From: Methanothrix sp.
GTDB taxonomy: Archaea; Halobacteriota; Methanosarcinia; Methanotrichales; Methanotrichaceae
DNA length: 64,000 bases
NCBI GenBank assembly: GCA_963682135.1
Contig: OY821645.1
Coordinates: forward strand, 704,001 to 768,000
Direction of reading: 5' to 3'
Shown: one piece after another, positions 1,270 through 14,353 of the stretch
Layout of the letters: every line of letters begins with the position of its first letter
Position numbering within the stretch: the first letter of the stretch is position 1
Program-made: the position numbers and the translations under genes
Notes under the pieces: generated by a model
What the model saw: the letters and a program-made list of their open reading frames with translations, nothing else
Database searches by the model: none
What the model was told of the DNA's origin: nothing

Positions 1270-3771
1270 TTATTCTCCATTCCTGGACTTGGCCCGGAGG
1301 GCTTGCAGACGCTTGGCATCATTTTCTGAATCTGGATGTCCGATCTCCCTTTCATAGTCTACGCATATCTGCATCAGTTCAGCAGCCTGCTTGAGACCTC
1401 CTGATTTCTCATATGCGAGACCCAGATTCCAGCAAGTATTTGCTTCGCCCCTTCGGTCCCCGATCTCGTGGGCAATGACAAGACGCTGATCGTAGTACTC
1501 GATGGCCTTACGGGCGTCGCCCAGGTCGGCGTAGGCATTGCCCAGGTTGCCCAGATCAGCTCCCTCGCTCCTTCGGTCCCCGATCTCACGGGCTATAGTC
1601 AGGTGCTGCTCATAATACTCGATGGCCTTACGGGCGTCGCCCAGGTCGGCGTAGGCATTGCCCAGGTTGCCCAGCGCATTTCCTTCGCCCCTTCGGTCCC
1701 CGATATCACGGGCTATGGTCAGGTGCTGCTCGTGGTACTCGATGGCCTTGTGGGCGTCGCCCAGGTTCTTGTATGCGATGCCCAGGTTGCCCAGCGCATT
1801 TCCTTCGCCCCTTCGGTCCCCGATATCACGATCAATGGCCAGCGCCTGCTCGAGGTACTCGATGGCCTTACGGGCGTCGCCCAGGTCGGCATAGGCCAGG
1901 CCCAGGTTGCCCAGATCAGCTCCCTCGCCCCTTCGGTCCCCGATCTCGCGGGCTATGGTCAGATGCTGCTCGTAGTACTCGATGGCCTTACGGGCATCGC
2001 CCAGGTCGGCGTAGGCATTGCCCAGGTTGCCCAGCGCAGCTCCTTCGCCACTTCTGTCCCCGATCTCACGGGCTATGGTCAGGTGCTGCTCGTGGTACTC
2101 GATGGCCTTGTGGGCGTCGCCCAGGTTCTTGTATGCGATGCCCAGGTTGCCCAGCGCATTTCCTTCGCCCCTTCGGTCCCCGATCTCACGGGCTATGGTC
2201 AGATGCTGCTCGTGGTACTCGATGGCCTTGTGGGCGTCGCCCAGGGCGGCGTAGGCATTGCCCAGGTTGCCCAGCGCAGCTCCTTCGCCCTGCTTCGTCC
2301 CAATTTTGCGAAAAGCTTTCAGTGATTGCTTATGATAGTCGATGGCCTTGCGAACATTTCCAATGGCAGCGCTGGCAAGGCCCAACATAGTGAGAAAAGA
2401 TGCTTCGTCATAGCTTGCACCATCAGAATGTGCTGCCTCCAGTCCACACTCCAACATGGCAATTCTCTCCCCCGAATGCCCCTGTAGATCAAGATAATCT
2501 TTGATAGCCCACACAAGAGACCGAGCCTCTGCCAGCATCCCGATCCTAATGCAGACTGACTGAACTGCCAGGATGTGATCTCTCTGAGCATCTAAGTTTT
2601 CGTATCCTGGCAATCCCAGCTTCATCTGTTCTTGGCCGAATTTATCGTAATGCTGAGCCAGTCGAGCCAGTTCTTCCTTTGATACAGACAGCCTTTCCCT
2701 GGCATAAGTATGTGCCAGAGAATGGGTTATCTGATAGCTGGATTCAGGGCGCATTAACAATCCAAAATCGACCAGCTCGCCCAGGCTGAAGTTCGCCTTC
2801 AGAGCAGATAACTGCAGAGCTATGGCTATGACCTCAGGCTCGAAGGACTTCATGGCCAGAACTCCCGCCAGGCCGAGACAGGAGAGCGCCTGATCGCTTA
2901 CGTGCTCCAGACTGTGCTCCATCAGCAGTGGAATGCTCTGATGCTGCTTTTTTCCCATGTCCAGAGCCTCAAGCGGCGTCTCCTTCAGCCAGGCCAGATA
3001 GTCGCTGGCAATCTGTCGCCGGTGAGCCAGGTAGCGGCCTGCCAAGAATATGGCCAGGGGCAAACAGCCCAGGAGATTGCAGATGCTGCGAGATGTCTTT
3101 TCATCTGCAGCCATCGAGCCGCCCCAGGCCTGCAAAAGCTCGACAGCCTTATCCTCAGGCAGAGGCAGCAGATCGCTTGGCTCCTCAGGAGCATCGCTTC
3201 GGCGCCTGGTGGTGATGAGAACTCCGCAGCTTCCTGTGACTGTTAAAACTGCCTGCAGGTCATCGCAGGCCTCGGCTCCATCCAGGACTATCAGAGCCTG
3301 GCGGCCGGCCAGGGCTCTCTTTGCTGCTTCGTAAGGGCTTTGCCGCGGGTCTTCTCCATAAGCTCGGGCGATTTCTTCCAGAGCCGAAGCAGCCTGAGGC
3401 TTGTGATAGAAGGTATGAAAGACTATTCCATCTGGGAAGCGTTCCAGCGGGTTGCTTACGGGCGCAAGCTGCCAGATAGCTTCGGCAGCCAGAGCGGTCT
3501 TGCCCATACCTCCAGGGCCGCAGATGGTGACTGCGTGGCCAGCCTGAAGGTCCCGGTGGAGCGAAGCTAGCTCGGCCTCTCTTCCTGTGAAATGAGGGAC
3601 TCGCTGCGGCCTTTGGAAGGGCAGGCGAAGTTTTAGAGCTTCATTGTAGATGAAATCGCCCTGGATCTGGAACTGGCCGGAGAAGAGCGGGCCAGAGACG
3701 TCTCCTGCTACGTTGGTTTGTGGACCGTTGGTCGTCTGGCCACGTTGGTTGATTGCAGGCTTGTAGTTCAT
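1270..3771 (-). CDS. NLR-like STAND NTPase (NB-ARC) with TPR array; N-terminal amyloid-like motif A
   Basis: FTGRE, Walker A GPGGMGKT, Walker B LIVLDGAE, LITTRR, CLPLAI; seven 40-aa TPR repeats; GGAGG RBS before the ATG. Confidence 0.9.
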   Translation of the reverse strand: MNYKPAINQRGQTTNGPQTNVAGDVSGPLFSGQFQIQGDFIYNEALKLRLPFQRPQRVPHFTGREAELASLHRDLQAGHAVTICGPGGMGKTALAAEAIWQLAPVSNPLERFPDGIVFHTFYHKPQAASALEEIARAYGEDPRQSPYEAAKRALAGRQALIVLDGAEACDDLQAVLTVTGSCGVLITTRRRSDAPEEPSDLLPLPEDKAVELLQAWGGSMAADEKTSRSICNLLGCLPLAIFLAGRYLAHRRQIASDYLAWLKETPLEALDMGKKQHQSIPLLMEHSLEHVSDQALSCLGLAGVLAMKSFEPEVIAIALQLSALKANFSLGELVDFGLLMRPESSYQITHSLAHTYARERLSVSKEELARLAQHYDKFGQEQMKLGLPGYENLDAQRDHILAVQSVCIRIGMLAEARSLVWAIKDYLDLQGHSGERIAMLECGLEAAHSDGASYDEASFLTMLGLASAAIGNVRKAIDYHKQSLKAFRKIGTKQGEGAALGNLGNAYAALGDAHKAIEYHEQHLTIAREIGDRRGEGNALGNLGIAYKNLGDAHKAIEYHEQHLTIAREIGDRSGEGAALGNLGNAYADLGDARKAIEYYEQHLTIAREIGDRRGEGADLGNLGLAYADLGDARKAIEYLEQALAIDRDIGDRRGEGNALGNLGIAYKNLGDAHKAIEYHEQHLTIARDIGDRRGEGNALGNLGNAYADLGDARKAIEYYEQHLTIAREIGDRRSEGADLGNLGNAYADLGDARKAIEYYDQRLVIAHEIGDRRGEANTCWNLGLAYEKSGGLKQAAELMQICVDYEREIGHPDSENDAKRLQALRAKSRNGE
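1450..2289 (-). repeat. Intragenic tandem array, 7 x 120 bp (40-aa TPR units)
   Basis: Near-identical DNA recurs every 120 nt (gatggcctt..gggcgtcgcccagg); unit GEGxxLGNLGxAYxxLGDAxKAIEYxEQxLxIxREIGDRR. Confidence 0.95.
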
Positions 3772-3777
3772 GATGGG

Positions 3778-6300
3778 CTATCTCCTCCATTCGGCCAGTT
3801 TTTGCTCAACCCTGGCTGCAAAGGGACTTTCGATTTGCCTGTAAATTTCGAGGGCAATTTCTGCTTTCTTGATAGCTTCGGGGTGCTTGCCGAGTCCGTA
3901 GAGGGCCAGACTGGAATTGTACAGCGCATTTCCTTCGCCCCTTCTGTCCCCGATCTCACGATCGATGGCTAGCGCCTGCTCGTAGTACTCGATGGCCTTA
4001 CGGGCGTCGCCCAGGGCGGCGTAGGCCAGGCCCAGGTTGCCCAGCGCAGCTCCTTCATTCCTTTTATCCCCGATTTCCTTGGCAATGGCCAGCGCCCGAT
4101 CGTAGTACTCGATGGCCTTACGGGCGTCGCCCAGGTCGGCGTAGGCATTGCCCAGGTTGCTCAGCGCATTTCCTTCGCCCCTTCTGTCCCCGATATCACG
4201 ATCAATGGCCAGCGCCTGCTCGTAGTACTCGATGGCCTGGCAGGCGTCGCCCAGGGCGGCGTAGGCCAGGCCCAGGTTGCCCAGCCAAGCACCTTCATTC
4301 CTTTTATCCCCGATTTCCTTGGCAATGGCCAGCGCCTGCTCGTAGTATTCGATGGCCTTACGGGCGTCGCCCAGGTCGGCGTGTGCCAGGCCCAGGTTGC
4401 CCAGCGCATTTCCTTCGCCCCTTCTGTCCCCGATCTCTCGGGCTATGGTCAGGTGCTGCTCGTAGTACTCGATAGCCTTACGGGCGTCGCCCAGGTCAGC
4501 GTGTGCCAGGCCCAGGTTGCCCAGCGCATTTCCTTCGCCCCTTCTGTCCCCGATCTCTCGGGCTATGACAAGACGCTGCTCGTAGTACTCGATGGCCTTA
4601 CGGGCGTCGCCCAGGGCGGCGTAGGCCAGGCCCAGGTTGCCCAGCGCATTTCCTTCGCCCCTTCTGTCCCCGATCTCACGATCAATGGCCAGCGCCTGCT
4701 CGTGGTACTCGATGGCCTTACGGGCGTCGCCCAGGGCGGCGTAGGCCAGGCCCAGGTTGCCCAGCGCATTTCCTTCGCCCCTTCTGTCCCCGATCTCACG
4801 ATCAATGGCCAGCGCCTGCTCGTAGTACTCGATGGCCTTACGGGCGTCGCCCAAAACGTAGTGGGCACTGCCCAGGTTACCCAGCGCAGCTCCTTCCACG
4901 CCCCTATTCCTCAGCTTTCTAGCAGCTTTCAAGGCTTCTTCAAGCCAGGAAATCCTCTGCGTCGGATGGAGGCGCAAATCTATCACATAAACTCCTGCAC
5001 CAGGGTAGTTCATGCAAAGATTCGCTGCCTGGGAATTTACTTCCAGGCTCTTACAGGACCAGGCATGACCGACGTTGATATTCGCTTCTTCTCTGTCAAA
5101 GAGCGCAAGACCCTTTTGGATTCCTTCGCTTCCCTGCAGGTAGTGGTCATCGGCTGCAGCTAGCAGATCTTTGTAGTAAGAGGAATGCCTTGCAGCAATG
5201 ATCTCCCTCGATTCGTCCCGCTGACGGGCTGAGGCAAAGAGGCGAGAGAGGTCGTGCAGCCTGTAGCGCCCATAATCCCGATCTTGAGACCTGTAATCTA
5301 CGAGACTCCACCGCACCAGCTCACTCAAATTCCTGTGCTTATCATCCAGGCAGATCTGCTCCTCAGCCTGGGCATCGAAGTCCGCCGGAAAGACTGACAG
5401 ATCGAGAAAAGTCTTCTGCACAGCAGCAGCAAGCCTTTGAAAGCTTAGGCCTAAGCTGGCGTCAACGCTCATCTCCACGCCCTGCTCGCCGATCATCTCA
5501 AGCCTGGTGCGCTCGTCCTTCAGCTCCTGAGCATATTGCTTCGGGCCGATGTCCTCGGAATTGGCCAGATAGCTTCCGGCAGCTCTCAAGGCCAGCGGCA
5601 GAAAGCCGCAGAGGCTGGCAATTTCAAGCCAGGCAGGGTCATCTCTGGGTGACTTATCTTGCTTTGCAGGGCAGCAGACATTGAGCAGCAGCTCCAGAGC
5701 TTCACCTGGCTTCATGACGTCCAGGTCCTTTTTGAAGAGGCCGGGTATTTTGATGGTCCTGCGGGAGGTGATGAGAAGAGCGCAGCTCTTGGGAGGAATC
5801 AGCTTGATGACCTGCTTGTCATCGGACGCATTATCCAGAAGGAGCAGGACGCGCTTGCCATTAAGCACTTCAAGATATCTGTCTTTGACTTCTGAATCGC
5901 TTTCTGGAATCTTTTCGTTGCGATGATAAGAATGGATGACATAGGCCATTGCCTCCATGGGAGAGAGGGGATTGGTCGTGCCCATCATGTCCACCATGAT
6001 CTGGCCGTCTGGGTAGCGATCTTTGAGTGATTCGGCGAGCTTGAGAGCAAGAGCCGTCTTGCCAACGCCCCCTATGCCACGCAGGCCGATGATGTTCTTG
6101 CCGGCTGAATACTCCGCTAAAAGCTCATTCAGCTCTTCATTGCGGCCTGTGAAATCTGAAGGCGGTTCCGGGATGAAAGGAAGCCGGGAGAGATCATTAG
6201 GTTTTGGGATATTAATATTATAATAATTTCTATCTCCGAATTGCTGCTCTACATTCCCAGTGGGATTTACAACCGGCCCTTTAGCATCCCTGAAATCCAA
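3778..6300 (-). CDS. NLR-like STAND NTPase (NB-ARC) with TPR array; N-terminal amyloid-like motif B
   Basis: TTG start with AGGAGG RBS; FTGRNEEL, GIGGVGKT, LLLLDNA, LLITSRR, GFLPLAL, MHD-like RLHDL; eight TPR repeats. Confidence 0.9.
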   Translation of the reverse strand: MDFRDAKGPVVNPTGNVEQQFGDRNYYNINIPKPNDLSRLPFIPEPPSDFTGRNEELNELLAEYSAGKNIIGLRGIGGVGKTALALKLAESLKDRYPDGQIMVDMMGTTNPLSPMEAMAYVIHSYHRNEKIPESDSEVKDRYLEVLNGKRVLLLLDNASDDKQVIKLIPPKSCALLITSRRTIKIPGLFKKDLDVMKPGEALELLLNVCCPAKQDKSPRDDPAWLEIASLCGFLPLALRAAGSYLANSEDIGPKQYAQELKDERTRLEMIGEQGVEMSVDASLGLSFQRLAAAVQKTFLDLSVFPADFDAQAEEQICLDDKHRNLSELVRWSLVDYRSQDRDYGRYRLHDLSRLFASARQRDESREIIAARHSSYYKDLLAAADDHYLQGSEGIQKGLALFDREEANINVGHAWSCKSLEVNSQAANLCMNYPGAGVYVIDLRLHPTQRISWLEEALKAARKLRNRGVEGAALGNLGSAHYVLGDARKAIEYYEQALAIDREIGDRRGEGNALGNLGLAYAALGDARKAIEYHEQALAIDREIGDRRGEGNALGNLGLAYAALGDARKAIEYYEQRLVIAREIGDRRGEGNALGNLGLAHADLGDARKAIEYYEQHLTIAREIGDRRGEGNALGNLGLAHADLGDARKAIEYYEQALAIAKEIGDKRNEGAWLGNLGLAYAALGDACQAIEYYEQALAIDRDIGDRRGEGNALSNLGNAYADLGDARKAIEYYDRALAIAKEIGDKRNEGAALGNLGLAYAALGDARKAIEYYEQALAIDREIGDRRGEGNALYNSSLALYGLGKHPEAIKKAEIALEIYRQIESPFAARVEQKLAEWRR
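3940..4899 (-). repeat. Intragenic tandem array, 8 x 120 bp (40-aa TPR units)
   Basis: Same unit family as 1450-2289, with 120-nt periodicity visible in the DNA. Confidence 0.95.
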
Positions 6301-6343
6301 AATTTGACTCCTCCTGCTTGATCTTTTAATCCCTCATCGAGGT

Positions 6344-7477
6344 CTACTCATCCTCTGGAGCTATGAGCTCGATCTTTTCGGGATCTACTCCCTCCTTGAC
6401 CAGCAATTCTGGTTTGCTTTCTTCCGGTATCCCCTCAAGGAGCAGAACGACGATCCCTTGATCAAAAGCCTGCTTAATCGATAGCCCAAATCCTATGGCC
6501 CGGTAGAAAGAGCCAGCAAAGGCAATTGCAGCCTCATCTCCGATTGCATCGTTCATGCCAATGGCGCAATCGATCACCTGGGTAATGGCTTCAGCCTGAA
6601 TTTTAGAGTAGCACGCATTTAGGATTACTACTCGAATGTTAGCTTTCAGCGTCTGGAATAGCGCCTTTATCGCTCTGGGATTTACTGGCTTTTGCTCTCC
6701 CCGGCTATCCACTAAAATTATCTCGCCAGATTGGCTGCCGTGCCCACTGAAATGCACAATCTGCGGCTTATGCTGGTTGAGCAGTTGCAGCAAATCATCG
6801 GGACGAACTGCCCAGGCGGATATGAGGTCTATTGAATCACGGTACTCTGCAGCTCTGATCTTTTCTGTGATCTCTCGGATCTCTCTATCAAGCTCCAAAG
6901 GTGTGGTGCCTTTGGGATTTGAAGCCAGGAAGAGAGCCTTAATCTTTTTAGAATTTTTATTATCATCGGACGATTCTTTTGCCCTGGAATGATCGATATT
7001 CACATCTCCGAAATGCTGGCTGACTGAGCCGCTTGGCCTAATAACCGCGCCTTTCGAGCCTCGAAAGTCATTTGCGTCTCCATTGAATTGACCGGAAAAT
7101 ACAGCTCCCTGTACGCCTCCGGCAATATTGGTCTGCGGACCGTGAACTGTCTGGCCCCGCTGGTCGAATACCGATCCTGCGCCCTCTTTCTTGATTGTCT
7201 CGACAAGCCTCTGAATCTCCTCTGCAAAATCAGCATCATCTTCCATCTTTTCGGCTATGGCCGCCTGTAGGGCAGCCTGCCTTGCCTTTGAATCCGGCTT
7301 CTCCTGGGCGCCAGCCAAAGCCTGCTGGGCGCTGGCGTCGCCTTTGAACCTGTCTGCAACCGACCCGGAAAGATCACCTACCAGACCCCCCAGCTTCTCT
7401 CCAACGGTTTTTGAAAATACTTCTGCTCCCTTAGCCACAAAGGGAGCCGCAAGGGCCGCTATTCCGAGTAGATCCAT
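6344..7477 (-). CDS. Effector: BELL-like helical N-terminal domain + two amyloid-like motifs + CHAT (caspase-like) protease domain
   Basis: aa1-100 helical (AAPFVAKGAE...LQAAIAEKMEDDADFAEEIQRLV); aa104-161 G/Q/N/S-rich; CHAT motifs LFLASNP, IVHFSGHG (catalytic His), VVILNACYS (catalytic Cys), FYRAIG. Confidence 0.85.
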   Translation of the reverse strand: MDLLGIAALAAPFVAKGAEVFSKTVGEKLGGLVGDLSGSVADRFKGDASAQQALAGAQEKPDSKARQAALQAAIAEKMEDDADFAEEIQRLVETIKKEGAGSVFDQRGQTVHGPQTNIAGGVQGAVFSGQFNGDANDFRGSKGAVIRPSGSVSQHFGDVNIDHSRAKESSDDNKNSKKIKALFLASNPKGTTPLELDREIREITEKIRAAEYRDSIDLISAWAVRPDDLLQLLNQHKPQIVHFSGHGSQSGEIILVDSRGEQKPVNPRAIKALFQTLKANIRVVILNACYSKIQAEAITQVIDCAIGMNDAIGDEAAIAFAGSFYRAIGFGLSIKQAFDQGIVVLLLEGIPEESKPELLVKEGVDPEKIELIAPEDE

Positions 7478-7615
7478 GCACTCACATTCCCAAATCGAGG
7501 TCTAAGAGGCGTTGACATCTCATGAGATAAATCTTTCCGGATAAAATTTGATGAAAGCAGGCATAGATTATAAGATCAATAACATACATATCTTGCATCA
7601 TTGAAGGTATTACCT

Positions 7616-10381: not shown

Positions 10382-13300
10382 ATGGCATACGATATCTTAT
10401 GGCGCTATGATGTTGATTCTCAGAAAAGGATCATTGATTCCTACATCTCACCGGTCGCGGACAAGATGCTGGGCTTGCCAGAAGATACCATCAGAAACAG
10501 CTTCCAAATATATTTTTCATATGTACATCCCGATGACTTGCCAGTCGTGCAGGAGATGCTTTCCGAAGCTATAGGGACGCCTGGGAAGGAGAAAAACGCA
10601 GAATACCGATTGCGAAAGGCTGACGGAAGGATGCTTTGGGTTCGTTCCCGGAGTCATGCCAATTGGCAGCCCGACGGCCGGATCAATATCTTTGGCTCTA
10701 CAATTGAGATCAATGACAGCAAGCAAGAAGAAGAAGAACTCAAAGAATCAAAGCTGCGATTAGCCAATATCATCGATTTTTTGCCGGATGCCACATTTGC
10801 CATAAGCCGGGACGGAAAGGTTCTCGCCTGGAATCATGCTATTGAGGTTATGACCGGTGTACCAAAGGAGGAGATCGTGGGCAAAAGCAATTATGCCTAT
10901 GCAGTACCGTTTTTTGGCGAAGCCCGGCCGATTCTCATCGATCTCATCTTTGAGAAATTACCGAAATTTGAAGAGAGATATATTTCTTTTGCAAGAAAAA
11001 GAAACCAATTGGTTGCCGAGGCTTTTGCGCCCCGGCTCAACCGGGGTAAGGGTGCCTATCTCTGGGGTATTGTCTCTCCTCTTTATGATAGCTATGGCAA
11101 TATTGTAGGAGCAATCCAATCTATCCGCGATGTCACCGAACGTAAAGCCGCAGAGCATGCGCTGCAGGAAAGCGAGGAGAGGTTTCGTACACTCTTTGAG
11201 AGTTCTCAAGACGCATTGATTACCCTCTCCCCGCCCTTGTGGAAGATCAACTCAGGCAATCCGGCGGCAATCAAGATATTCGGGATAAGAGACGATAAGC
11301 AGCTTACATCATTTTGTCCCTTGGATCTCTCACCGGAGCGCCAGCCGGATGGGCAGAAATCCTCCGATAAATTCAAGGAGATGATGGATATCGCCATGCA
11401 AAAGGGCTCCCATTACTTCGAATGGATACACAATCGGCTAAATGGCGAGCAGTTTGCGGCAACAGTTCAGCTTACCCGCATGCAGCTGCAAGGTAAGATA
11501 TTGATACAGGCCAACGTGCGAGATATCTCCGAGCAAAAATGGGCGGAAGCGGCGCTAAAGGGAAGCGAGAAGCGCCTCATGCGAGCGGAGGAGATCGCCC
11601 GTTTCGGTCACTGGGAGTTCTCAATAGACGAGAAACTGATGCGCGCCTCAAAGGGGGCAAAGCGCATTTATGGTTTGGAGGGTGAAGAGTGGCCTCTTTC
11701 TGATGTGAAAAAAATTCCCTTGCCCGAGTACCGCACGCTCCTCGATAGGGAACTTTCAGAATTGGTTATGAATGGAAGGCCGTATAATGTGGAATTTAAA
11801 ATTCAAAGGCCATCCGACGGACAGATTCTTGATATTCATTCACTTGCAGAATATGATCCTGCAAAAAGAATGTTGTTTGGCGTCATAAATGATGTCACGC
11901 AGCGCAAGAAAGCAGAGGAAGCCTTGCGGGAGAGTGAACTGAGGCTAAGAACCATTTTTCAGACCTCCTCTGCAGGAATAATCATAGTTAATCCCCAGGG
12001 GAGAATTACACAGGCAAACCAGAGGATGGCAGAAATGTTTTCCTGCCCGCTGCAGACGATTATAGGCACTGCGTATCCTTCCTTTATTCATCCGGATGAA
12101 CGCTCGCAGGGAACAGATCGCATGCAAGCATTGATGGAAAAGAGGATCGATACAGTCTATACGCAGCGACATTATCTGCGTAGGGATGGCGGCGATTTTT
12201 GGGGATTAATAAGTGGCCGACGGATGGTAGGATCGAATGGAGAGTTCATTGGCCTGCTGGGCATCATATTCGATATAACCGATCACAGGAACGCTGAGTT
12301 GGCGCTAATGTCATCAGAGCAGGAGAAGGCGGCAATTCTGAATGGATTAAGGCATGTTTCTGTGGAGTACCTTGATACCAACATGCGCATTATCTGGGTG
12401 AATAAAGCGGTGCAAACCTCTCTTGGATTATCTATGGAGCAGATAAAGGGCAATTACTGCTATGAGATCCTGCAGAAACTCAAGGAGCCGTGTCCCGGAT
12501 GCACGGCATGCAAAGCCGCAAAGACAGGGCATTTTCAGGAAGGGGAGATTGTGACCCCCGACGGCAAGACCTGGCTGTCAAGAAGCTCTATCATCAAAGA
12601 TGCAAATGGTTGTGTCCAGGGAATAGTCCATGTGGCTATGAATATCACCGAGCGCAAGAGGACAGAGGAAGAGATCAGCTCGAATCTTGAGGAGCTCAAG
12701 AGATCCAAGACCCAGATTCAGCAATCAAATTCGCTGCTTTCAGCAATTATGGCAAGCCCCAATAATATCGTCGTTTTCGCATTGGACAGGGAGTACAGAT
12801 ATCTGGCATTTAATCAAAATCATAAAAATACTATGTTGGCCATTTGGGGGGTTGACATTGAAATCATGGCAAATATGCTCGATTACATTACAGATGCCGC
12901 TGACCGCAGCAAAGCAAAGCGAAACTTTGACCGAGCACTGGCAGGCGAGCACCTGGTTATTATTGAGGCATATGGAGACAACGATCTGCAGCGTCGCTAT
13001 TATGAGAACCATTACAGCCCCATCAGAGGAGAAGACGGTCTCTTCATCGGACTGACTGTATTTCTGTTCGACATTACTGAGCGCAGGCGCATGGAGGAAG
13101 AGCTGCAACAAACCAATCACGATCTGGAAATTGCCATTAAGCAGTCAAATGAATTGGCTAAACAAGCCGAGCATGCCAATACTGCCAAGAGCGAATTCCT
13201 GGCTAACATGAGCCATGAGATCCGCACTCCATTAAACGGCGTTATAGGCATGACCGGACTGTTGCTGGATATGGATTTAGATGCAGAGCAGCATGAGTAT

Positions 13301-14353
13301 GCACAAATTGCCCATATCAGCGGTGAGATGCTTCTATCTCTAATCAACGATATCCTTGACTTCTCCAAGATCGAGGCCCGCAAACTGGAAATGGAAATGC
13401 TGGATATCGATATTCGCTCCATCATGAAAGAGACTGCAAATCTCCTGGCATTCAGTGTCCGGGAGAAAGAGCTGGAATTGCGCTGTCAGGTGGAGCCGGA
13501 AGTTCCATCCAGGCTGAGAGGCGATCCGGGAAGGCTGCGCCAGATTCTCATCAACCTGGGCAGCAATGCTGTAAAGTTCACTGATAAGGGCGAGATCGAA
13601 ATTCGCGCTTGCTTGGAGAGCGAAGATGAAATAAATGCCACAATTCGCTTCTCTGTAAGAGATACAGGTATTGGCATCCCGGCAGATCGGCAAGATATTC
13701 TCTTCTCACCTTTTTCACAATTGGACAGATCGACAACGCGAAAATACGGTGGAACCGGCCTCGGTCTGGCCATATCTAAACAACTGGTGGAAATGATGCG
13801 TGGTAGGATCGGCCTGGAAAGCAAGGTGGGCATAGGTTCTATCTTCTGGTTCACAGCCGTGTTCGAGAAGAAGATGACAAGGCCGGAATCGGCAGATGGT
13901 GAGCCCATGAAGATTAAAGGAAAGGCAGGAATAGATGGCATCGTGGCAAGGCCTGCAATTTCCCAATCATCCAAACGCAAGATACGCATTCTGGTGGCGG
14001 AAGATAACCCCGTAAACCAGAAAGTGGCCCAGGCATTGCTGCGCAAGATGATGTTACAATCGGATGTTGTTTCTAACGGTCTGGAGGCAGTCAATGCACT
14101 GCAGACCACACCCTACGACCTGGTGCTGATGGACTGCCAAATGCCTGAGATGGACGGTTACGAGGCCACGAGTAAGATCCGTGAGCAAGGATCCAAGGCA
14201 CTCAATCCATCCATTCCCATCATTGCCATGACAGCTCTCGCAATGCTTGGAGATAGGGAGAAGTGTATTCAGGCCGGAATGAACGATTTTATTGCCAAAC
14301 CGGTCTTGCGAAGAGATCTGACAAGAATGCTTACCCGATGGCTGGGGATTTAA
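10382..14353 (+). CDS. Multi-PAS hybrid sensor histidine kinase/response regulator
   Basis: Multiple PAS/PAC units ending DITER; FLANMSHEIRTPLNG, NLGSNAVKFT, DTGIGI, GTGLGL; receiver ILVAEDN...LMDCQMP...AKP. Confidence 0.92.
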   Translation: MAYDILWRYDVDSQKRIIDSYISPVADKMLGLPEDTIRNSFQIYFSYVHPDDLPVVQEMLSEAIGTPGKEKNAEYRLRKADGRMLWVRSRSHANWQPDGRINIFGSTIEINDSKQEEEELKESKLRLANIIDFLPDATFAISRDGKVLAWNHAIEVMTGVPKEEIVGKSNYAYAVPFFGEARPILIDLIFEKLPKFEERYISFARKRNQLVAEAFAPRLNRGKGAYLWGIVSPLYDSYGNIVGAIQSIRDVTERKAAEHALQESEERFRTLFESSQDALITLSPPLWKINSGNPAAIKIFGIRDDKQLTSFCPLDLSPERQPDGQKSSDKFKEMMDIAMQKGSHYFEWIHNRLNGEQFAATVQLTRMQLQGKILIQANVRDISEQKWAEAALKGSEKRLMRAEEIARFGHWEFSIDEKLMRASKGAKRIYGLEGEEWPLSDVKKIPLPEYRTLLDRELSELVMNGRPYNVEFKIQRPSDGQILDIHSLAEYDPAKRMLFGVINDVTQRKKAEEALRESELRLRTIFQTSSAGIIIVNPQGRITQANQRMAEMFSCPLQTIIGTAYPSFIHPDERSQGTDRMQALMEKRIDTVYTQRHYLRRDGGDFWGLISGRRMVGSNGEFIGLLGIIFDITDHRNAELALMSSEQEKAAILNGLRHVSVEYLDTNMRIIWVNKAVQTSLGLSMEQIKGNYCYEILQKLKEPCPGCTACKAAKTGHFQEGEIVTPDGKTWLSRSSIIKDANGCVQGIVHVAMNITERKRTEEEISSNLEELKRSKTQIQQSNSLLSAIMASPNNIVVFALDREYRYLAFNQNHKNTMLAIWGVDIEIMANMLDYITDAADRSKAKRNFDRALAGEHLVIIEAYGDNDLQRRYYENHYSPIRGEDGLFIGLTVFLFDITERRRMEEELQQTNHDLEIAIKQSNELAKQAEHANTAKSEFLANMSHEIRTPLNGVIGMTGLLLDMDLDAEQHEYAQIAHISGEMLLSLINDILDFSKIEARKLEMEMLDIDIRSIMKETANLLAFSVREKELELRCQVEPEVPSRLRGDPGRLRQILINLGSNAVKFTDKGEIEIRACLESEDEINATIRFSVRDTGIGIPADRQDILFSPFSQLDRSTTRKYGGTGLGLAISKQLVEMMRGRIGLESKVGIGSIFWFTAVFEKKMTRPESADGEPMKIKGKAGIDGIVARPAISQSSKRKIRILVAEDNPVNQKVAQALLRKMMLQSDVVSNGLEAVNALQTTPYDLVLMDCQMPEMDGYEATSKIREQGSKALNPSIPIIAMTALAMLGDREKCIQAGMNDFIAKPVLRRDLTRMLTRWLGI

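Follow-up and report, generated by a model that had tools for sequence, protein, structure and literature searches.

We propose that three adjacent genes of the methanogenic archaeon Methanothrix sp. (contig OY821645.1, positions 704,001 to 768,000; this 64-kb stretch as a whole is called the window below) probably form a many-to-one amyloid-signaling system of the NLR/Bell type, in which two NOD-like receptors (NLR1 and NLR2) would act on one double-headed effector. The effector is predicted to combine an N-terminal Bell-type death domain with a CHAT protease domain and carries between them two short, unlike motifs, A and B. Motif A recurs at the N-terminus of NLR1 and motif B at that of NLR2. 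Judged by the literature text searched, the effector with two unlike motifs, the fusion of Bell and CHAT, and the wiring of two NLRs to it appear to be what is new over the known Bell/NLR pairs.

Two unlike motifs are shared between the effector and its neighboring NLRs

Residues 104-131 of the effector (motif A) align with residues 7-34 of NLR1 with 19 of 28 positions identical (BLASTP, E 1e-9), and residues 137-160 (motif B) with residues 2-25 of NLR2 with 14 of 24 identical (E 2e-6). These are the sole significant BLASTP alignments of the effector with NLR1 and NLR2, respectively. When one partner was shuffled 5000 times and the alignment scores were compared, none of the shuffles reached the score of motif A (106, against 24 +/- 5 for shuffled sequences) or that of motif B (79, against 19 +/- 4). 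The score of A against B is 19 with a shuffle mean of 18.3 and was reached by 2010 of the 5000 shuffles; the two motifs are thus unlike each other and, by the same score, are not pseudo-repeats of the HET-s type (HRAM). At the nucleotide level the matched stretches share 56 of 84 (A) and 43 of 72 (B) positions, and the codons differ at 12 of the 19 identical residues in A and at 7 of the 14 in B. Such low nucleotide identity in combination with differing codons argues that the likeness is held at the peptide level and does not stem from fresh gene conversion.

The first-pass annotation of this DNA had described three co-oriented genes in a methanogenic archaeon, with motif A linking the effector to NLR1 (19 identities), motif B linking it to NLR2 (14/24) and no resemblance between A and B. 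All of this holds: the coordinates of the open reading frames (ORFs) agree, with all three genes on the minus strand and gaps of 43 nt between effector and NLR2 and 6 nt between NLR2 and NLR1, and genes for methyl-coenzyme M reductase (MCR) component A2 and Mmp3 flank the cassette.

A search over 5.8 billion proteins returned about two dozen full-length homologues of the effector, 22 of which were aligned. They are 64-94% identical to the window effector, and Bell, A, B and CHAT are present in all of them. Among the 22, mean pairwise identity is 0.70 in the Bell domain, 0.84 in motif A, 0.70 in motif B, 0.47 in the linker after B and 0.89 in CHAT. Because the motifs are better conserved than the linker and use differing codons at identical residues, A and B appear to be kept under selection. 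The composition of the A-B module, whose aligned rows include short flanks, matches the bias published for bacterial amyloid signaling sequences (BASS; Q, N, G, V and I enriched, K, P and L depleted; Dyrka et al., bioRxiv 10.1101/2020.01.06.895854) in Q (2.3x), G (2.0x), N (1.24x), V (1.22x), L (0.21x) and K (0.76x), but not in I and P, and in most respects supports a beta-arch-type motif.

The effector joins a predicted Bell domain to a CHAT domain

The effector had been annotated as a protease. A CHAT domain is indeed present, yet the Bell domain in front of it had been overlooked, so the protein is predicted to be more than a protease. Its start, MDLLGIAALAAPF, consists of MD followed by a hydrophobic helix, which is the Bell signature of an acidic residue at position 2 or 3 and a hydrophobic N-terminal helix (Dyrka et al., bioRxiv 10.1101/2020.01.06.895854). 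The same genome encodes a canonical Bell protein of 137 aa that is 49% identical over effector residues 1-130 (E 2.8e-29), and stand-alone Bell proteins of relatives are 52-64% identical in the Bell region, including one that adjoins an NLR holding a published amyloid-like peptide of M. soehngenii (L063; see below). The AlphaFold2 (AF2) model built from the 22 homologues places six helices over residues 1-100, with a predicted local distance difference test (pLDDT) of 54-91 per 10-residue block, and predicts residues 99-165 as disordered. Mean pLDDT of the whole effector is 47; the model is confident for Bell only, and CHAT is poorly modeled from 22 close sequences. Based on the Bell homology, the helical model and the MD plus hydrophobic helix at the start, we predict that the first ~100 residues are a Bell-type helical membrane-targeting death domain and read the protein as Bell, motif A, motif B and CHAT. 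Pfam has no family covering residues 1-165. NCBIfam gives no match for the canonical Bell protein and sub-threshold caspase-type matches only for the effector, while a Foldseek comparison of the Bell domain with the PDB gave no match (best non-CHAT hits E > 0.3).

The CHAT domain matches PF12770 with 37.4 bits (cut-off 24; E 2.5e-9). His246 (in HFSGHG), G247 and Cys289 (in NACYS) are invariant across the 22 homologues, and the only PDB sequence match, SAVED-CHAT 8tl0 (E 1.2e-13), aligns these His and Cys motifs to HFIGHG and LNACC. The domain is predicted to be a cysteine protease with a His/Cys dyad. Foldseek finds 8tl0 with E 3e-5 on the poor model and with TM-scores of 0.14-0.19; since structural hits have such poor TM-scores, the kinship to 8tl0 is judged from sequence.

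The CHAT module, of ~200 aa, is 56-85% (mostly 64-76%) identical to the CHAT parts of many other proteins (P0025-P0120); 2461 proteins match at E <= 0.001 among 8000 candidates scored. Two of the matches bear bacterial names (Pyrinomonadaceae, Blastocatellia). The N-terminal parts of these relatives differ widely (FGE-sulfatase, TIR, NACHT, FHA, PspA-like, HTH), and this 'mini-CHAT' looks like an unusually conserved and widely exchanged effector module.

The receptors

NLR1 and NLR2 are predicted to be STAND NTPases of the NB-ARC type. The two NB-ARC domains score 56.3 and 33.8 bits (cut-off 23.5) and their tetratricopeptide repeats (TPRs) 323 and 187.5 bits for TPR_12 (Pfam), and the Walker A motif reads GIGGVGKT in NLR2 and GPGGMGKT in NLR1. 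The TPR units within each array are highly identical (Table 1), a state that commonly accompanies frequent recombination.

Further proteins of the same genome match an NB-ARC query (G000:C1 649851-652436, 2616981-2620283, 555006-557174 and 2427813-2430038). Judged from their first residues and phmmer only, the heads of these four proteins are TIR-like, metallophosphatase-like and, in two cases, CHAT-like, which suggests a small repertoire of 'all-in-one' NLRs beside the three motif-bearing NLRs of the genome.

Motif A is part of a lineage-wide Bell/NLR motif family

The third motif-bearing NLR belongs to a second Bell/NLR locus of the same genome (G000:1955355-1955768), where the stop of the 137-aa Bell gene overlaps the start of a 630-aa NB-ARC/TPR gene. 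The shared motif reads GQTVHGNQTVI in the Bell protein and GQTVHGDQTII in the NLR. From its sequence this locus has the canonical Bell/NLR amyloid-signaling layout of Dyrka et al. In the window genome the A-B profile is significant only for the effector, NLR1 and NLR2, the second pair scoring E 0.22 and 7.4, and we take the motif of this pair to be a distant variant.

To survey such pairs, 105 genomes of the order were searched and the loci fetched. We found 18 stand-alone Bell proteins (133-187 aa) with an A-type motif at the C-terminal end, and in every case the next gene encodes an NB-ARC protein with an A-like N-terminus. The gap between both genes is -13 to +13 nt in 16 of the 18; the exceptions are 483 and -52. 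Sub-variants recur on both sides: a form with '...EANAPVFSG...' is found on Bell and NLR alike in three loci (L014, L018, L042), and a short Bell form, '...TQTNIGNV.GSVNIG', pairs with NLRs that carry '...TQTNI...'. An NLR peptide of M. soehngenii, AEB69175.1(5-29), is described as showing amyloid-like aggregation in vitro by Fourier-transform infrared spectroscopy (FTIR) and Congo red (PMC8086366). These 25 residues are present letter for letter at positions 5-29 of the Bell-adjacent NLR in a genome of the same genus (L063) and are of the motif A type (..FDQRGQ.V.G.Q.NVAGD..). By sequence, motif A thus falls in the same motif family as this amyloid-like peptide, and it is the Bell/NLR motif usual in this family of methanogens.

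A wider cassette of motifs

Beyond these pairs, the motifs occur in several other arrangements. They include a Peptidase_C14 caspase followed by A, B, NB-ARC and TPR (L045), caspase-B-NB-ARC (L053, L054), caspase-A-NB-ARC (L057), caspase-A-B with a helical tail (L043, L044), a hydrophobic helix followed by A-B-NB-ARC (L046, L047, L049-L052) and Bell-A fused straight to NB-ARC (L017, L020). Against 1.84 billion representative proteins the A-B profile matched 210 at E <= 0.001 and 58 at E <= 1e-10. A Pfam scan of the best 139 of 149 relatives found TCAD2 in 12, Peptidase_C14 in 11, NB-ARC in 9, EAD7 in 5, NACHT in 5 and PNP_UDP_1 in 3. In one protein the order is Bell-A-B-PNP_UDP_1 (P0124; Bell part judged by eye), and GNAT and ATPase modules also accompany A or B motifs. 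Motif B is also found by itself, both N-terminally in long STAND proteins and beside caspase domains, and therefore appears to be an autonomous unit. Of 401 sampled genomes of the phylum the A-B profile matched 3, all in the family of the window, and none of the 389 outside it.

Many relatives bear a third conserved G/N/V-rich element after B, here called C ('..GDGNV(I/V)G..S.S.VIK'), which the window effector does not have. Carriers of C include P0121, P0122, P0124, P0131, P0135 and P0159; P0121 bears A-B-C and a second A-like motif near its C-terminus.

Orthologous loci and the accessory nature of the cassette

The number of receptors per effector varies between related loci. In one genome (G041; L036) three NB-ARC/TPR genes come after the same effector; one of their tips bears B, one A together with the first half of B, and one A. 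In a metagenome contig with the same flanking genes as the window (L039) only one NLR comes after the effector (L039:11196-13730). Over its first 824 residues this NLR shares 86% identity with NLR2, whereas the last 40 residues match the end of NLR1 (93%) and not that of NLR2 (3%). This chimera of an NLR2 head and an NLR1 tail shows that recombination between the near-identical 120-nt units of both TPR arrays deleted the A-type receptor. On another contig (L060) NLR2-like and NLR1-like genes are adjacent, and the contig ends at the expected position of the effector. A scan of metagenomes gave 4 loci; a scan over the contigs of genomes with effector residues 1-165 found no relative.

Both in the window and in L039 the cassette lies between the gene for MCR component A2 and a nitroreductase-like gene. 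These two genes are neighbors with no such cassette between them in G035 and G073, and the three-gene chromosomal cassette is therefore accessory. No direct or inverted repeats of at least 9 nt were found between the two flanks of the cassette that would represent insertion scars. G035 has a decayed Bell-A-B-CHAT gene elsewhere (L037:7762-8406), with a stop after residue 214, ~1.2 kb downstream of a 542-aa transposase-like ORF and at a great distance from NLR genes.

Layout and transcription of the locus

The coordinates of the features are collected in Table 1. Translational coupling of the three genes on one transcript is plausible, because GGAGGAG sites precede NLR2 and NLR1 and T-runs are absent from both the 43-nt and the 6-nt gap. 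A search of sequencing runs for RNA from the locus listed none; the five entries that contain it are contigs from two studies. The divergent intergenic region upstream of the effector is likely to be the promoter region of the cassette.

Table 1. Features of the three-gene cassette (positions in the window)
Feature	Position	Strand	Basis
Effector gene, 377 aa: predicted Bell + motif A + motif B + CHAT	6344..7477	-	ORF, Pfam CHAT, 22 aligned homologues
Predicted Bell-type N-terminal helical domain, aa 1-~100	7178..7477	-	Homology to Bell proteins, AF2
Motif A on effector, aa 104-131	7085..7168	-	BLASTP, shuffles, conservation
Motif B on effector, aa 137-160	6998..7069	-	BLASTP, shuffles, conservation
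CHAT caspase-like protease domain (predicted), aa 168-340	6458..6976	-	Pfam PF12770
NLR2, 840 aa, TTG start: motif B (aa 2-25) + NB-ARC (aa 55-276) + TPR array	3778..6300	-	ORF, Pfam, BLASTP
Motif B at NLR2 N-terminus, aa 2-25	6226..6297	-	BLASTP, shuffles
NLR2 TPR array, 120-nt units, 8.1 copies, 85% matches	3922..4896	-	Repeat analysis
NLR1, 833 aa, ATG start: motif A (aa 7-34) + NB-ARC (aa 78-257) + TPR array	1270..3771	-	ORF, Pfam, BLASTP
Motif A at NLR1 N-terminus, aa 7-34	3670..3753	-	BLASTP, shuffles
NLR1 TPR array, 120-nt units, 7.1 copies, 85% matches; alternatively 360-nt period, 90%	1438..2290	-	Repeat analysis
GGAGGAG Shine-Dalgarno-like site, 7 nt upstream of NLR2 TTG	6308..6314	-	Read from sequence
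GGAGGAG Shine-Dalgarno-like site within NLR2 3' end, 10 nt upstream of NLR1 ATG	3782..3788	-	Read from sequence
A/T-rich divergent intergenic region, 123 nt, effector vs nitroreductase-like gene; putative promoter region	7478..7600	.	Read from sequence

The neighbors of the cassette include the genes for MCR component A2 (TIGR03269, 822 bits), Mmp3 and the nitroreductase-like protein. Two genes away lies a gene for a 1323-aa multi-PAS hybrid histidine kinase/response regulator (10382-14353, plus strand); L039 has two such genes there. Within the 64 kb of the window the 11-mer TAGACCTCGAT has exactly two occurrences, at 7494-7504 and 6336-6346 on the minus strand. One of them is located 17 nt before the effector ATG and the other overlaps its TAG, so they form a direct repeat that brackets the effector ORF. 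The pair could be a trace of the effector joining the NLR genes, or chance.

Discussion

Proposed mechanism

Based on these elements, the cassette may work as follows. A ligand would bind the TPR array of a receptor, upon which the NB-ARC domains would oligomerize and gather the N-terminal tips of the NLRs. The gathered tips would fold into a cross-beta nucleus that templates the matching motif inside the effector, NLR1 presumably addressing motif A and NLR2 motif B. As effector molecules polymerize along the fibril, the Bell helix would be released or refolded to attack the membrane, and the CHAT domains would be gathered for activation by proximity. Either receptor would thus fire the same double-headed executioner (OR-type logic), with cell death as the presumed outcome. 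We infer that such a circuit may fit a filamentous host habit. The amyloid step follows the model of the NLR/Bell pairs of multicellular bacteria and of fungal NWD2/HET-S; it is proposed by homology, since a homologous motif-A peptide aggregates in print. SAVED-CHAT protease activity is reportedly dependent on filament assembly. The 8tl0 entry is described as an 'activated SAVED-CHAT filament', which is a precedent for activation via ordered polymerization. A complex prediction with NLR1 residues 1-45, NLR2 residues 1-40 and effector residues 99-165 scored 0.09, where the mark was 0.32, and counts neither for nor against the mechanism.

The first-pass annotation had read the cassette as an amyloid NLR signaling locus. 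The Bell domain, the shared motifs and the collinear NB-ARC/TPR anatomy agree with this, whereas the motifs do not have the C-terminal position of published pairs and the amyloid mechanism is one by homology. The annotation had also overlooked that A and B belong to a wider A-B(-C) cassette present within many further architectures of the family. Covariation of the motifs favors the pairing of Bell proteins with their adjacent NLRs, yet it is modest by rank. Across 20 Bell/NLR pairs the cognate mean score is 70.2 vs. 48.6 for non-cognate combinations, and the cognate sum was reached by none of 10000 re-pairings, a result that is inflated by kinship among the loci; in only 5 of the 20 Bell tails is the cognate NLR the top-ranked one. 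In this comparison the window and L036 were represented by their A-type NLR only. Left out were loci in which an A-type NLR is absent or not visible (L039, L040), in which Bell-A is fused to the NLR (L017, L020), which are cut by a contig end (L019, L025), have broken tails (L034, L035) or a pseudogene (L037), or which represent a locus already included (L057, identical to the L021 locus).

Several other observations likewise weigh against templated amyloid signaling. Motifs A and B lie internally in the effector (residues 104-160 of 377), between Bell and CHAT, and not at the C-terminus as in published pairs. They also serve as linkers in single polypeptides (caspase-A-B-NB-ARC, Bell-A-NB-ARC) and might have another role there, because such linkers need no templating between proteins. 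The effector of L039 retains motif A though the adjacent A-type NLR has been lost, and the effector homologue of G035 is a pseudogene with no neighboring NLR. The printed aggregation evidence is for a homologous motif-A peptide; amyloid formation by motif B is presumed. Membership of a named BASS family is not established, because the BASS1-10 profiles missed the Methanothrix motif, which is described as resembling BASS3/RHIM (PMC8086366). Finally, proline is enriched 1.55x in the A-B module, whereas BASS motifs are reported to be P-depleted, and isoleucine (0.97x) is off the bias as well.

This proline content would suit A and B as non-amyloid homotypic adaptors, which dock in a finite stoichiometry on the oligomerized NLR, e.g., by beta-strand augmentation, with no self-propagating fibril. 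They would take the place that Death-fold or EAD adaptors hold in other STAND systems, and one effector would still be wired to two or more receptors. The use of the motifs as internal linkers is in line with docking, as is the presence of adaptor-rich conflict-system modules, EAD7 and TCAD2, among the A-B relatives (5 and 12 of the best 139 of 149). However, the motif-A peptide is amyloid-like in vitro (PMC8086366), Bell plus motif plus adjacent NLR is the context of the prion-like templating described for bacterial BASS motifs, and the motif region is predicted to be disordered rather than a folded adaptor. We consider simple docking unlikely, if deserving of some weight. A different role for the same segments would be that A and B, with C where present, build one composite multi-rung beta-solenoid, of which an A-only or B-only NLR nucleates one rung; the receptors would then be redundant or cooperative, and orthogonality would be absent. 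In many architectures A and B come together as one cassette, frequently with C after B, the conserved unit of 'B-only' proteins includes the second half of A, one NLR of G041 combines A with the first half of B, and HET-s is described as a two-rung unit templated by a one-rung NLR. Yet the rungs of HET-s are pseudo-repeats, whereas A and B are unlike (2010 of 5000 shuffles), and A alone suffices in the 18 canonical Bell-A proteins, as B alone does in several proteins; such a common fold seems decidedly unlikely. Both ideas keep their share of probability because the motifs are internal and are used as linkers in single polypeptides.

The frequent position of A and B next to caspase or CHAT domains could also indicate sites for recognition and cleavage by caspase-like proteases (CHAT, Peptidase_C14), which would release Bell and other parts, comparable to protease-activated gasdermins. 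This is hard to reconcile with the 18 canonical Bell-A/A-NLR pairs, which have no protease in the pair, and with the motifs that accompany PNP_UDP, GNAT and ATPase modules, and it leaves a cleavage site at the extreme N-terminus of the receptors unexplained; we rate it as very improbable. The lowest credence goes to the motif match as a by-product of recombination between neighboring genes that has no role in signaling. The TPR arrays of both NLRs do recombine, as the chimeric NLR of L039 illustrates, but the matched motifs have a nucleotide identity of 60-67% only, with many synonymous differences at conserved residues, they are more conserved than the adjoining linker across the 22 homologues, and the same pairing is present at 18 other loci.

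Relation to known systems

Compared to published Bell/NLR pairs, the window locus has the Bell domain, the shared motif, the NLR architecture and the gene spacing, while the C-terminal position of the motif is not found. Such BASS pairs, among them AEB69174.1/AEB69175.1 of M. soehngenii, likewise join a Bell domain and a short Q/G/N/V-rich shared motif to a collinear, tightly spaced NB-ARC-TPR gene, with the effector motif at the C-terminus as in the stand-alone Bell relatives. The window effector differs by its internal motifs, the second and unrelated motif B, the CHAT domain fused behind it and the two NLRs (three in G041) that carry different motifs for one effector. Dyrka et al. (bioRxiv 10.1101/2020.01.06.895854) list a protein of Methanothrix soehngenii among Bell domains and mention two archaeal pairs found by pairwise alignment, as well as double and triple copies of the same motif (legend of their Fig. 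S4) and CHAT with a C-terminal BASS (Fig. S5, section 9). The literature text searched holds no effector with two unlike motifs, no Bell and CHAT fusion and no layout with several NLRs for one effector; the supplementary tables, which are outside this scope, may list such cases.

In the NWD2/HET-S system of Podospora anserina (HRAM) the N-terminal motif of an NLR is likewise described to template the effector motif and thereby to switch on an N-terminal helical membrane-targeting domain. HET-S has two pseudo-repeats of one motif and one NLR, whereas the window has two unlike motifs, two NLRs, an added protease and an archaeal host. The sesA/sesB/het-eN cluster of Nectria haematococca comprises three genes with a sigma motif and thus more than two proteins that share amyloid motifs. 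There, one receptor serves two effectors through one motif, whereas in the window two receptors with two motifs would serve one effector. In animals, the RHIM necrosome and the ASC/caspase-1 platforms are ordered polymers that gather death effectors and caspases. They have no sequence relation to the window system; the Methanothrix motif is only said to bear a resemblance to BASS3/RHIM (PMC8086366). With SAVED-CHAT 8tl0 only the CHAT core is alike; instead of an amyloid motif, it is a SAVED domain binding cyclic nucleotides that activates this protease. The antiphage system Bab/Agp of E. coli (BASS11) is described as a Bell-related death domain that is activated via a ~20-residue amyloid motif shared with an adjacent sensor, and gives functional proof for a role of such pairs in abortive infection (bioRxiv 10.1101/2024.11.07.622273). 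Its sensor, as described, is TPR-GreA/B-C-PIN and not an NLR, with a single motif and no protease fusion.

Implications

Amyloid-templated immune signaling as described in the literature text searched uses one motif family per receptor-effector set. If our proposal is correct, prion-like codes can be multiplexed into many-to-one circuits. The practical value is modest, and the mechanism rests on homology. The cassette would offer a compact natural system for cross-seeding specificity, in which A would seed with A and B with B, but not A with B. A further, tentative and on balance doubtful extension is that A, B and C are separate orthogonal amyloid 'addresses' that are shuffled among sensors (NB-ARC, NACHT, other ATPases) and executioners (Bell, CHAT, caspase, PNP_UDP). 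If so, the window effector would be a logic hub, where several receptors, each with its own code, converge on one protein that launches both membrane attack and proteolysis, and this would be the first combinatorial multi-input amyloid signaling network, and in Archaea. The predicted fusion of Bell and CHAT would join two hallmark machineries of cell death, one a helical domain that forms pores and the other a caspase-like protease, in one polypeptide under NLR control in an archaeon, and as such bears on the antiquity of this type of regulated cell death.

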